Below the pieces are notes generated by a model, which had not been told where the DNA came from, searched no databases, and saw nothing but the letters and a program-made list of their open reading frames with translations. From NCBI GenBank assembly GCA_018650165.1, contig JABIGM010000021.1, positions 1 to 44,365 on the forward strand: a stretch of DNA of 44,365 nucleotides. Direction: 5' to 3'. Within the stretch, counting starts at the first letter, position 1, and every line of letters starts with the position of its first letter. Positions 37,278 to 41,563 of the stretch are shown in pieces. A program made the position numbers and the translations under genes. The DNA is from Methanobacteriota archaeon. Its GTDB lineage: Archaea; Thermoplasmatota; Poseidoniia; Poseidoniales; Poseidoniaceae.

Positions 37278-37316
37278 GGCCGACACCCTATTCCCTTCAT
37301 CCCAGTTGGCCATAAC

Positions 37317-38342
37317 ATGGATTTGGTTCAAGCGGCGTGGATGATTCGCGATCTCGGCCAACCAGTTAGCGCTTTACACATCGGCGAGGACGCGTCCATA
37401 ATCGCCGGGGGATGGGACGGGGCCCTCAAAAAATGGGACCACGAAGGTACTCTATTGTGGGGGACACAATGCGAAGACCGAATTGAATGTATTTTGGTTG
37501 ATGGTGAATTAGTCGTAGTCACGTCAGGCCTGCATATCACTTGCGTAATCGATGGAGAAATTCAATGGAGCCATGCATTGGAAGGTTCAGCAGACTTACT
37601 TACCACTTTCAATGACCAAATTATAGCTACCTCAAGCGTGTACGATATCGAGCATGGCGATTTTATGGAAAGCGGGATTTGGAACTTCACACGTGAAGGA
37701 GAATTACTGAATGTTAATCGCATGGACGAAAGACCATGGTTCATTGCTTCTGAAGCGGACTTAATCGTAGGGCTTGGTCGTCCGAAGTGCGGCGTACTGA
37801 TTGGAAACGAATATCACAATTTGGCAACCGAGTCTCCGGTAACATGCGGAGTTTCGGGTAGAGAAAGAACACTATTTGGTCATGCAGACGGAACCGTATC
37901 GTCATTAGATGGCGCAAAGGTTTCCAAAGAAGAAACTTCGATAGATTCTGTATTGTGTTCTGAAAGCGGATTTGTCATTGCATTAGAAAATGGGACATTA
38001 GTTGCCCGTTCACCCGACTCAACTGAATTATGGAAAGCACCAGGCTCTCAAATTACAACCCAAGTATCTGGTTTCAATGAATTACATTGGTGCGGCCGGT
38101 GGCAAATTACCACGGGCGTTGTTGAGGTTAGAGGCTCAGATGGCAAATTAATCACTTCAGCTTCAACTTCACGGCCAAGAGTTTCGACTTCATCTGAATT
38201 AAGAATCGGTATCGGTTTTGACGATGGCCAAATCCTGGTATGGGAAAAGGAATTGTTTGAACGCCGTTCATCTGAAAAATCATCATCTACGGATGGTCGA
38301 AAATCTGCCTTGGCTGCTAAACTTCGATCACTACGAGAATGA
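37317..38342 (+). CDS. PQQ/WD40-like beta-propeller protein
   Basis: AGGWDGALKKWDHEGTLLW, GEIQWS, ELWK and IGFDDGQILVWE blade repeats. Confidence 0.75.
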   Translation: MDLVQAAWMIRDLGQPVSALHIGEDASIIAGGWDGALKKWDHEGTLLWGTQCEDRIECILVDGELVVVTSGLHITCVIDGEIQWSHALEGSADLLTTFNDQIIATSSVYDIEHGDFMESGIWNFTREGELLNVNRMDERPWFIASEADLIVGLGRPKCGVLIGNEYHNLATESPVTCGVSGRERTLFGHADGTVSSLDGAKVSKEETSIDSVLCSESGFVIALENGTLVARSPDSTELWKAPGSQITTQVSGFNELHWCGRWQITTGVVEVRGSDGKLITSASTSRPRVSTSSELRIGIGFDDGQILVWEKELFERRSSEKSSSTDGRKSALAAKLRSLRE

Positions 38343-38436
38343 TGTTATTTATTGAACAAATCTTCCAGTGGATACAGTGGAAAGCATAGCCGTAGACCCC
38401 CGTTTCGCATGGAAAACAGCCGAAAAAAGCGTAAGG

Positions 38437-38443
38437 TTTATTT
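38437..38443 (+). promoter_or_regulatory. Possible TATA box for the structured RNA
   Basis: TTTATTT lies about 25 nt upstream of the first hairpin (38468), with an A-tract at 38423-38428. The match is imperfect. Confidence 0.35.
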
Positions 38444-38467
38444 GCCGCCTCTGCACACATGAATATT

Positions 38468-39335
38468 GCCGCTCTGAAAGGAGTGGTGGAGGACTTCTCC
38501 GGAAGCCCTCTGGGACCCTTGCCAACCGGACGCTCAAACCGAGCAAAGTGTTGGTCACAAACTCTGGAGACGGAGCGAGTGAGGCGATCGGGGAGATTGT
38601 GAACTTTCGAGTTCAGAAAGTCCCTCCGCCCACAGGATGATACGGAGCTTCGGCGAAGAATCAGCCACATATCTTTCGAGGAATGTGGTATAGGGAGGGC
38701 CACAACTTGTTGTGGAATTACCAAAGACTGTGCAACAGCCGGGAGGAGTAGCAGTAACAGTTCTTCGGAACAACCTCTGTTACAACAAACGGCTTGGTGG
38801 AAAAGTTTCGGCTTGGAAACCACGGGCGGAGACCGAATCAGGGATGCAACCTTCGGGATGCAAAACTGGAAACGGACCAACCACGGACGGAAACCGCGCA
38901 ACCCACTTCTTCGGAAGTGAGTTGAAACGGACCTCCATGGCCAAGACCGAATTGGAGAGCAACCTTCGGGAAACTCGAAAAAAACGGATGGCCACCGTTG
39001 GAGGAAGCACGATCACTTCGGTGAGAATGTGAAAAACAACACCGGTAGAGAGGAAACAGGACCTTCGGGCGATGTGAAATCAATACCACCCTGGGAATCT
39101 ACCATTTCGGTGGAAGATGAACAGTACCCGGCTGTTGAGAAGAAGGCACCTTGGAAACAAGATGTCAACGAACTGGAAAGCACTTTTCGGAGTGAAGAAA
39201 GGTGACGACGACTCGACGGCCACCAGCGGAGGCTGGCAGGGGGGCGGATATCCCACCCGGATGAAACCCCCCTGCCAGTTCTCCCATCCTGCTTTCACAG
39301 GTAAACGGGTGCCAGTGCATTCCGCTTATGACTCT
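38468..39335 (+). ncRNA. Candidate large (~870 nt) highly structured non-coding RNA, family unassigned
   Basis: TTCG-capped hairpins with loops at 38606, 38649, 38675, 38764, 38807, 38852, 38910, 38965, 39017, 39064, 39106 and 39186. Also a UCCG loop at 38498, GAAA loops at 38476 and 39154, a CUUG loop at about 38706, and a 12-bp stem 39233-39244/39267-39278. No credible ORF. Ends are approximate. Confidence 0.8.
38732..38988 (+). repeat. Four degenerate tandem modules GCAAC-[UUCG hairpin]-AAACGG within the RNA candidate
   Basis: GCAAC at 38732, 38846, 38898, 38959; AAACGG at 38787, 38870, 38925, 38982. Exact repeats: AGACCGAAT (38830, 38944), GCAACCTTCGGGA (38846, 38959), GAAACGGACC (38869, 38924). 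Confidence 0.75.
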
Positions 39336-39376
39336 TAAGGACGTAAATCTTCTTCGCGACCACTTTTGATTGGTGA

Positions 39377-40768
39377 TTAATTTACGCCAGTCATTTCTTC
39401 AGGCCTAACCCACTGGTCGAACTCTTCATTGGTAAGGAACCCTAATTCAAGAGCGGCTTCCCTCAGAGTCGTGCCTTCCTGGTGTGCCTTTTTAGCGATC
39501 TTTGCAGATTTATCATATCCGATATGATTATTCAAAGCTGTAACTAACATTAGTGAATTCTCTAGATGATTTTTGATAACATCCCTATTTGGCTCAATAC
39601 CTTCCACGCACTTTTCTCTAAACGCGCGCATTGAGTCTGATAGAATCCGTGCACTATGCAATAGATTGTGAATCATCATTGGTTTGAATACATTCAATTC
39701 GAAATTACCTTGGCTTCCTCCGATTGTGATGGCCGTGTGATTGCCCATCACTTGACAGCAAACCATTGTTAGGGCCTCGGATTGAGTTGGGTTTACCTTT
39801 CCTGGCATAATAGAGGATCCTGGCTCATTAGCGGGAAGTGATAATTCTCCAAGTCCACATCTTGGCCCAGAACCTAGCCAACGTACATCGTTGGCTATTT
39901 TCATCAAACTTACAGCCAAGGTGTTGAGTGCGCCACTCGCAGATACAACAGCATCATGAGCGGCTAATTGTGAAAATTTATTTGGCGCTGAAACAAACGG
40001 CAGACTCGTTTTCAATGCGATGGCAGCAGCCACTCTATCTGCAAACTCGGCATGAGTATTGAGTCCGGTACCCACTGCAGTACCTCCTAATGCCAACTCG
40101 TGTAAATCTTCTAACACAAATTCAATTCTTCGAATATCAGCATCTAATTGTGCAACCCAGCCACTTGCTTCTTGCCCGAGTGTTAAAGGTACAGCATCCA
40201 TTAAGTGAGTACGTCCAATTTTTACAACATCAGACCATTCATCCGATTTTATCGCTAGTGCATCTCTCAAATTTGCAAGGCTGGGCAGTAACTCATGAGT
40301 GAAAGCTTCAGCACTGGCAATATGCATCGCAGTTGGAAAGGTATCGTTGGAGGACTGTGCGCGATTAACGTGGTCATTTGGATGAACAGGACTCTTGGAT
40401 CCAAGTACCCCACCCGCCATTTCTATTGCACGGTTTGCAATAACTTCGTTTGAATTCATATTCGATTGTGTTCCAGAACCGGTTTGCCAAATGCGTAAAG
40501 GAAAATGGTCATCCAATTTCCCATTAACAACCTCTTCAGCAGCAGCAATAATTAATTTTGAAACATCAGAGTCTAGTTGTCCCAAATCAGCATTGACTTT
40601 TGCCGCCGCTTGCTTGAGTATTCCAAACGCCCGAACGATTTCTCGCGGCATTTTGTCATCACCAATATCGAAGTTGATTAGGGACCTCGCGGTCTGGCAT
40701 CCGTAGTAACGATCTGCAGGAACTTCCAACTCTCCCATGGTATCGGACTCGATTCGAACATCTCTCAT
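39377..40768 (-). CDS. fumC: Fumarate hydratase class II
   Basis: [35 protein letters not shown], signature [28 protein letters not shown]. Confidence 0.97.
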
Positions 40769-40825
40769 ACCCGTAGGGGCGTAGGTGGTTGTCCATGTCC
40801 CTTTCCCCTCGCAACCGTCAAAGGG

Positions 40826-41563
40826 GTGAATCCAGAGCACTACCTGATGGCAAGTTATCGCCTAGTATGGTTTCAACATCTGCATAAGGCAGCAGGAACC
40901 TATGTGATTAGACGTGCAATGGCCAACGGCGAGACATTTTGGCCGACTCATGAAAACGGAAACCCAGTGAGAGAGGGAGAAGTAATTCCCCTTTGGAAGA
41001 TGGAAGGAAACGATTTGACAGCATTTATTGACGAATGTGAAAATAGTGGAGTCACATTTGTTGCTTGTGAATGGGGCGGGGCCGACTTTGAAATCCTGGC
41101 AAACGACGAAAGAGTAACACTACTAACTTGTTTGAGACACCCGATTAAGCGATTAATTTCTAACTACAATTATGACCATTATTGGATGTGGACAAAGGCA
41201 ACATCCTATGCCGAATATCTGAATGAAGGCCATCTACATTCTTCATCAGAATATTATACTCGAATTTTTGCACGTGGAAAAGAAGATTTAGCAATCGCCA
41301 AATCAAATATTTCCCTCTTCGATTACATCATTATTGCAGAAGATGGTATGTCTGCATTAGACGAATTAGGATGGTCCAAAGAAAGCGATACTACGCACCC
41401 AACATTTGGCGACAAAAAAAGAGCATCAATCCTCCTTTTGAAGTTAAGGTGGATTAGATTATTCAACTATCTCAAACAACGAAAACACCTCCCGCCTACA
41501 GAATTACAAATCGAAGAAAAAAATAAATTAGACATGGATTTATACAATTCAATGCGTGATTAA
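40826..41563 (+). CDS. Sulfotransferase family (Sulfotransfer_2-like) protein
   Basis: 5'-PSB-like [10 protein letters not shown], 3'-PB-like [13 protein letters not shown]-terminal NKLDMDLY. Start may be 40847. Confidence 0.75.

Follow-up and report, generated by a model that had tools for sequence, protein, structure and literature searches.

The window analysed here is a 44,365-nucleotide stretch of contig JABIGM010000021.1 (NCBI GenBank assembly GCA_018650165.1, positions 1 to 44,365 of the forward strand), from an archaeon of the family Poseidoniaceae in the order Poseidoniales. Within it, a gene for a PQQ/BamB-like beta-propeller protein (37317-38342, + strand) and the fumC gene for FumC, a class II fumarase (39377-40840, - strand), enclose a stretch that a preliminary description had put forward as a free-standing, large structured non-coding RNA (ncRNA) of a Marine Group II-like host. 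The host is a Marine Group II (MGII) archaeon, with near-identical 3′ domains of the RNA present in records of Candidatus Poseidoniaceae / MGIIa. The stretch stands out from its surroundings in composition, having a G+C content of 0.50-0.54 against approximately 0.43 in the flanks, and an excess of A over T with a skew of up to 0.35. Neither tandem repeats nor, in a tRNA/tmRNA scan, any such gene were found in it. By DNA similarity the element is single-copy in its genome: a blastn-short comparison of the RNA with its own genome yielded nothing better than E ~1, and hence neither a second copy nor any long complementarity to other loci.

The right-hand flank holds two further features. Counted from stop to stop, the fumarase open frame (39377-40861, - strand) comprises just 494 codons, and its lyase domain begins at residue 36. 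The corresponding frames of other Poseidoniales genera have 529-557 codons; an N-terminal extension therefore seems to be absent from the fumarase of the source genus. Divergent from fumC, and overlapping its start by 15 nucleotides, lies a 245-codon open reading frame (40826-41563, + strand) that belongs to no Pfam family.

The stretch between the two genes carries no coding signal. As the preliminary description had noted, it has no believable open reading frame: on the - strand open frames reach 194 codons, and the longest open frames change strand and position among 17 species of the genus. In the same species, indel run lengths taken modulo 3 are distributed 167/94/19 and are mostly not multiples of three, and no 3-base periodicity of variability was found in the alignment. 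A conserved coding signal in one of the small open reading frames, which the description had named as evidence against an RNA gene, was found in none of them across the 17 species. The RNA and its upstream signals are arranged as follows.

38375..38416, + strand: candidate transcription-factor site, an inverted repeat (CAGTGGAAA ... TTTCgCA TGGAAAA) with conserved arms
38428..38443, + strand: BRE/TATA-like promoter (AGCGTAA GGTTTATTT), a conserved box at a fixed distance
38468..38487, + strand: P1, the 5′-terminal hairpin, whose 3′ strand GGAGUGGU(GG) is invariant in the order
38488..38795, + strand: 5′ domain, comprising helices 2-20 of the consensus, most of which are changed on both sides
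38488-38511, + strand: P2, within the 5′ domain
38513-38554, + strand: invariant stretch with P4, within the 5′ domain
38555-38582, + strand: GAGA-capped hairpin with a conserved GAGA tetraloop at 38567-38570
38796..39126, + strand: central array of variable length, in which UUCG-capped hairpins carry A-rich internal loops (covarying hairpins, helices 21-32)
39127..39293, + strand: 3′ domain, a multi-helix junction with a long terminal hairpin and the tail UCCUG (covariance model R1, covariation)
39288..39312, + strand: probable 3′ end, a small hairpin (39288-39301) with a U-rich loop (CCUG CUUUCA CAGG), and trailer
38476..39262: part seen as RNA in public marine metatranscriptomes, in exact contigs with no differing letters (strandless)

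The proposal of an RNA had been built on the density of hairpins capped by extra-stable tetraloops. The cited hairpins are present at 38600-38615, 38904-38919, 39013-39024 and 39181-39194; a GAAA-capped 5′ hairpin lies at 38468-38487 and a CUUG hairpin at approximately 38700-38715. On the + strand of 38368-39340 the word TTCG occurs 13 times, a density of 13.4 per kb where the window as a whole has 4.35 per kb, and its complement CGAA six times; twelve TTCG-capped stems had been claimed, and 12 of the 13 occurrences fall within the RNA. UNCG-capped stems of at least 3 bp number nine on the + strand and three on the - strand. In 1000 dinucleotide-preserving shuffles the mean was 0.46 and the maximum 4, so that none reached nine. 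The tetraloop argument thus stands for UNCG, which is enriched, but not for GNRA: four GNRA-capped stems were observed against 2.5 expected, a value of four was reached by 234 of the 1000 shuffles, and this part of the argument is weak. The + strand folds more stably than shuffled sequence (minimum-free-energy z-score -6.1) and more stably than the - strand (-3.0). Internal repeats of the central array are found at spacings of 55-114 nucleotides. A scan for k-turns revealed no convincing canonical example; the internal loop of the 3′ hairpin is a 4x3 loop (CGGA/AAA), and not a 3-nucleotide bulge followed by G.A/A.G.

Comparative evidence for the fold is extensive. DNA similarity finds the stretch in 22 of the 24 other genomes of the genus, and RNAalifold applied to an alignment of 17 species (A1) predicts 162 pairs, and compensatory changes occur in 65 of these. 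When only the transcript is considered, the consensus comprises 214 pairs, in which 93% of cells form a standard pair, compared to 36-44% when the partner is slid; across the 17 species, 97 of the 214 pairs are changed on both sides, against 28-43 in the slid controls. None of 500 shuffles reached the observed values of pairing and both-side change. At the level of the order, among 25 distinct sequences of the 3′ domain, 42 of 52 pairs are changed on both sides (6-16 when slid) and 95.8% of cells are paired (34-51% in slid controls). Homologues with compensatory changes, for which the preliminary description had called, are therefore plentiful. Its further claim that the signal is confined to one strand and tolerates G-U pairs is also borne out, both by the 9 to 3 ratio of UNCG caps and by the consensus pairs, in which 342 cells are G-U and 72 are A-C; this excess of G-U cells identifies the paired molecule as the + strand RNA.

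The upstream region suggests that the RNA is transcribed from a promoter of its own. A conserved BRE/TATA box lies approximately 25 nucleotides upstream of the first hairpin. In all 17 sequences of the genus the motif RAAAGGTTTAT is kept at a fixed distance, with TTTA approximately 28 nucleotides before that hairpin, and the box is also conserved in 13 loci from both Poseidoniales families. From this fixed distance, a transcription start is predicted at 38466-38468 or thereabouts. The originally proposed extent of the RNA, 38468-39335, agrees with this start; its end is more likely to lie at about 39296-39312.

Further upstream, approximately 55-95 nucleotides before the RNA start and ahead of the TATA box, is the inverted repeat, which can also be spelled CAGTGGAAA ... 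TTTCC(G/A)C TGGAAAA. Its TGGAAA and TTTC elements are invariant in both families of the order, and in two Thalassarchaeaceae loci the repeat has perfect arms of 9-11 nucleotides with a 17-nucleotide spacer. Because the arms are conserved in sequence and do not covary, recognition by a protein is suggested, and in its sequence the repeat resembles an operator bound by a dimeric regulator. A search for a wider regulon was unproductive: a genome scan with TGGAAA-N15-24-TTTCC gave few sites, all within coding sequence, including one on contig C42 that was first taken as intergenic.

The existence of a discrete and abundant transcript, as predicted, is documented by public marine metatranscriptomes, in which contigs match just this stretch, albeit without giving the strand. 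Of the words sampled from the stretch, 65-79% are present in nineteen RNA runs from 17 studies, and one of these runs comprises only 7 million letters. Contigs of four runs from three studies were mapped on 37300-40900. Run X2 has a contig at 38476-39247 (depth 48.8), run X1 one at 38499-39261 (depth 1722), run X7 one at 38476-39217 (depth 23.3), and run X6 two, at 38488-39165 and 39136-39262 (depths 1861 and 778). In the same libraries the propeller gene is uncovered and fumC has a depth of 0-4. The k-mer depth in the two deepest runs, approximately 1,700-1,860, is several hundred times that of contigs from neighbouring genes, with the proviso that such depth is a poor measure of expression. 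Single contigs of 742-772 nucleotides span the stretch and none extends into fumC or the propeller gene. The contigs begin 8-31 nucleotides downstream of the predicted start, and the DNA upstream of it is covered by none. They show one continuous RNA species across the element with essentially silent neighbours in the same libraries, that is, a discrete transcript independent of the adjacent genes.

The contigs cannot fix the exact ends of the RNA. They stop before the 3′ strand of the terminal hairpin, at least 30 nucleotides short of the conserved 3′ tail, and their ends are scattered (39217, 39247, 39261 and 39262). We read these ends as a decay of coverage near a very stable terminal hairpin; a processing site was considered and set aside, as the scatter fits coverage decay near a structured end.

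Within the RNA, some parts are conserved and others variable. In P1, changes in the 5′ strand (C-G to U-G, G-U to A-U) preserve pairing with the invariant 3′ strand. Beyond the elements listed above, the 5′ domain contains more hairpins as far as 38793 as well as long invariant single strands. The central array is composed of recurring 'CCG - hairpin - GAAACGG' modules; it varies in length, and is absent in relatives whose RNAs measure 440-500 nucleotides. The 3′ domain of the window scores 189.6 bits with R1 and includes approximately 80 consecutive, nearly invariant nucleotides. Its junction is purine-rich, with the strands GAAGAAGG and GUGACGACGAC invariant within the genus, and leads into the long terminal hairpin CGGAGGCUGG...CCAGUUCUCCCA at 39226-39286, at the base of which GGAGG/CUCC is invariant across the order. 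A palindromic loop in this hairpin, GGAUAUCC, was tried as a site for kissing dimers and rejected, being broken in three species. The small U-rich hairpin at the 3′ end is a conserved feature of genera g1 and g16; in other lineages its place is taken by a T-run or a different small hairpin.

Three segments of the 5′ domain, CAGGA (38633-38637), GGGAG (38693-38697) and CUGUGC (38728-38733), are predicted to pair with the 3′ domain, at 39287-39291, 39281-39285 and 39226-39231, respectively. The three resulting long-range helices would tie the 3′ tail to the 5′ domain; they are invariant, and hence unproven, within the genus. In the short, g16-like loci one of them, the CAGGAUG:CAUCCUG helix, is replaced by CAGGUG:CACCUG, a compensatory deletion of one pair involving both strands.

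The RNA does not correspond to a catalogued family. A search of the whole window against Rfam 15 (4227 models) found nothing at gathering scores, which upholds the earlier claim of novelty; the models covered OLE, ROOL, GOLLD, HEARO, raiA, IMES-1 to -4, group I/II introns and ribozymes. At E<=10, a search of 38250-39450 returned only matches at chance level, including a miRNA-like match and a 10.8-bit RNase P fragment. The best, to the C/D-box snoRNA SNORD26, reached 21 bits (E = 0.13), where the threshold is 44; it lies at 38331-38396, spans the stop codon of the propeller gene and is probably due to chance. Two known archaeal RNAs were considered as candidates and dismissed, the genome having its own copies elsewhere: a full-length RNase P RNA (RF00373; G000:C49:12849-13145, 223.7 bits) and an SRP RNA (RF01857; G000:C1:130-432, 106.3 bits). 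Literature searches found no large RNA described in Poseidoniales. With its own promoter, its own transcript, a covarying fold and no Rfam match, the RNA is free-standing as first proposed, and we hold it with high confidence to be a genuine large ncRNA whose family is uncatalogued. In our assessment it represents a new class among large structured RNAs and, with a caveat concerning the Tan1 RNA discussed below, the first of its kind known to us in Archaea.

To chart the distribution of this RNA family, 150 further genomes from the order were searched with R1, the covariance model built on the 3′ domain. In the family of the window (Poseidoniaceae, MGIIa), the numbers of genomes with a match are:

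genus g1: 9 of 10 genomes
genus g16: 2 of 2 genomes
genus g12: 0 of 24 genomes
genus g13: 0 of 20 genomes
genus g14: 0 of 10 genomes

In the other large family (Thalassarchaeaceae, MGIIb), the corresponding values are:

genus g4: 3 of 3 genomes
genus g11: 4 of 7 genomes
genus g19: 5 of 6 genomes

Wherever the RNA was found, in both Poseidoniales families, the arrangement propeller - RNA - fumC is preserved. At this locus, no gap for the RNA exists in representatives of g12, g13 and g14, and in g13 the propeller gene abuts fumC. The loci of g5 and g7 have gaps of 615 and 950 nucleotides with recognisable P1 and 3′ elements; these copies score 18.9 and 21.8 bits with R1 when filters are off, and are missed by the default filters. 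A result of 'no match' therefore understates the distribution within the Thalassarchaeaceae. From its distribution over genera and its conserved locus, the RNA seems to be ancestral to the order and to have been lost in part of the Poseidoniaceae.

Outside the order, approximately 125 genomes representing about 40 further families of the phylum gave no match. When 185,579 species genomes were scanned with a pattern, real matches came only from Poseidoniales-type metagenome-assembled genomes (MAGs). Three pattern matches in Methanotrichaceae/Methanosarcinales lie in protein-coding sequence and resemble a helicase motif, and those in bacteria are as numerous as estimated for chance; none of either group scored with R1. 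Viral contigs in IMG/VR gave 0 matches to the 3′ motif.

From P1 to the 3′ element, members of the family measure approximately 440-1250 nucleotides, the short ones lacking the central array. The opposite extreme is found in the MGIIb-P lineage, in which the 3′ domain of approximately 335 nucleotides is tandemly duplicated (83-91% identity). Both copies retain the terminal hairpin through compensatory changes, and a single 5′ hairpin precedes them in an RNA of approximately 1.25 kb. Duplicated loci include L074 (2565-3229) and L057 (3640-4290), and also L041, L045, L046 and L038. An MGII RNA with a duplicated 3′ domain is also present in PBPU01000093.1 (L132, 5804-6292), filed under 'Acidimicrobiaceae bacterium isolate RS349'; this is probably a mis-binned archaeal contig.

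The RNA is independently transcribed, abundant, folded, modular in build, and conserved in a pattern that sets invariant elements apart from covarying and dispensable ones. In our reading, 38468 to approximately 39300 on the + strand is a free-standing gene for a stable, very abundant and highly structured ncRNA of approximately 0.83 kb, a member of a family specific to the Poseidoniales. It is transcribed from its own BRE/TATA promoter, downstream of the conserved operator-like inverted repeat. The core of the RNA probably comprises the 5′ and 3′ domains, which the predicted long-range helices would join, as well as the invariant 5′ hairpin and, at the other end, the terminal hairpin and tail. 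The array of UUCG-capped hairpins with A-rich loops lies between these domains, somewhat in the manner of expansion segments. Such a core may act as a binding platform for one or more proteins, and the RNA may either provide the scaffold for an abundant ribonucleoprotein or act by sequestration.

Several features point to a binding platform. The elements shared by the whole order, such as the 3′ strand of P1 and GGAGG/CUCC, are invariant in sequence even within helices. The central array is fully lost in the RNAs of 440-500 nucleotides, which argues that function sits in the remaining RNA, and duplication of the 3′ domain would double valency, as expected of a binding module. The dispensable and expandable nature of the hairpin array, the great abundance of the RNA, a promoter with an operator-like site, and the lack of long complementarity to other loci of the genome argue in the same direction. 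The neighbouring genes give no clue to function, since propeller gene and fumC are also adjacent in a genus that lacks this RNA (L049). We infer the scaffold role, and the use of invariant junctions and helix ends as protein contacts, from this pattern. The same invariant junctions would suit tertiary RNA-RNA contacts or a catalytic core equally well, which counts against a scaffold. A modular protein-binding scaffold or sequestering RNA is our best guess, held tentatively and slightly short of being probable.

Strong conservation of the degree seen in the approximately 80 nearly invariant nucleotides of the 3′ domain, and in the invariant single strands of the 5′ domain, is typical of catalytic RNAs, and a large ribozyme with an active site formed by the invariant junctions might account for it. 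Contigs of two studies end at 39261/39262, in the apical loop of the 3′ hairpin, and could mark a cleavage site; yet together with the ends at 39217 and 39247 they are scattered as expected from coverage decay. The RNA has no match to an Rfam ribozyme, and the tandem duplication of its 3′ domain in MGIIb-P and its loss from whole genera better fit a dispensable accessory role, so that we regard catalysis as improbable. By analogy with ROOL, GOLLD and OLE, the transcript might instead assemble by itself into a defined homo-oligomer, with the array providing struts and the invariant loops contacts between subunits. Its size, UUCG-capped helices, A-rich loops, GAGA tetraloop (38567-38570) and high abundance resemble those RNAs. 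Against such an RNA-only architecture, there is no conserved self-complementary loop, the only palindrome being the GGAUAUCC loop that is broken in three species, and a threefold variation in length among lineages sits poorly with a cage of a single fixed geometry; this is a rather unlikely explanation.

Throughout the order the RNA is flanked by the propeller gene and the 3′ end of fumC, and this constant position might point to a regulator of these neighbours, acting by convergent transcription into fumC or as an element serving the propeller gene. However, the RNA contigs run into neither gene, a conserved 0.8-kb fold would be needless for antisense regulation, and the two genes remain side by side in the genus without the RNA (L049); we consider a cis or antisense role very unlikely. 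The recurring modules and the 194-codon frames of the - strand could likewise be taken for a row of separate small RNAs, a gene coding for a protein or a repeat element acting at the level of DNA. This interpretation is largely refuted and has hardly any probability left: single contigs of 742-772 nucleotides span the stretch with uncovered flanks, the open frames are unconserved and indels and codon positions lack a coding pattern, and the element is single-copy, devoid of tandem repeats and tolerant of G-U pairs in the + strand only.

Marine Group II archaea, which are uncultured, rank with the most abundant plankton of the surface ocean. Few structured RNAs are both large and highly conserved, and the ones whose functions are known (rRNA, RNase P and group I/II introns) include central catalytic machines; among the orphan 'ornate' RNA classes, we know of none from Archaea. 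It is possible, if somewhat doubtful, that the RNA described here represents the first large 'ornate' class of this domain, either acting alone, as a ribozyme or self-assembling nanostructure, or forming the core of a major, hitherto unknown ribonucleoprotein. If true, this would amount to a new kind of cellular machine in uncultured plankton. The size of the RNA suits in-vitro transcription and cryo-EM, and its natural variants (the minimal form of 440 nucleotides, expanded arrays and the duplicated 3′ domain) outline the parts that matter. The patchy distribution in Poseidoniaceae provides a natural comparison of presence and absence for the study of partners and role.

Among known RNAs, CsrB/RsmZ and 6S RNA are similar in being abundant, modular RNAs with repeated units, in which domain duplication changes valency. 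In contrast to the MGII RNA, they are bacterial and smaller, and have defined motifs (GGA loops and an open-promoter mimic, respectively) that are not seen here; the comparison is an analogy of mechanism only. Closer in host is Tan1 (Thalassoarchaea ncRNA 1), an abundant RNA of 229 nucleotides from a Red Sea metatranscriptome, which is predicted to have a complex structure and is reported from MGIIb fosmids only (Hou et al., 2016, Sci Rep 6:35470, PMC5069720). To our knowledge, it is the only published abundant MGII ncRNA without known function. As described there, Tan1 is set apart by its 229 nucleotides and its restriction to MGIIb, whereas the RNAs of this study measure 440-1250 nucleotides and occur in both families; Tan1 could be a conserved fragment of the large MGII RNA, or something else.

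The nearest analogues are the bacterial orphan RNAs OLE, ROOL and GOLLD, with which the MGII RNA has size, ornateness and abundance in common, but neither homology nor host nor context. ROOL and GOLLD are large ornate RNAs of bacteria and phages that form RNA-only cages, and the MGII RNA resembles them in size and in its 'ornate' architecture of multiple hairpins. It differs from them in having no Rfam match, no match of its 3′ motif in IMG/VR and a fixed chromosomal synteny. OLE RNA (RF01071) occurs next to oapA in Bacillota, with OapA/B/C as its partners. The MGII RNA is archaeal and matches OLE neither in sequence nor in structure; it has no oapA-like neighbour or operon, possesses its own archaeal promoter and varies threefold in length. 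According to a recent preprint, ROOL, GOLLD and OLE all form protein-free homo-oligomers, as visualised by cryo-EM (bioRxiv 10.1101/2024.12.08.627333). In general character, the MGII RNA shares much with OLE: both are genes of the host and not of a mobile element, chromosomal, single-copy and highly expressed, and both yield RNAs of approximately 0.6-0.8 kb with many conserved helices and long invariant stretches.
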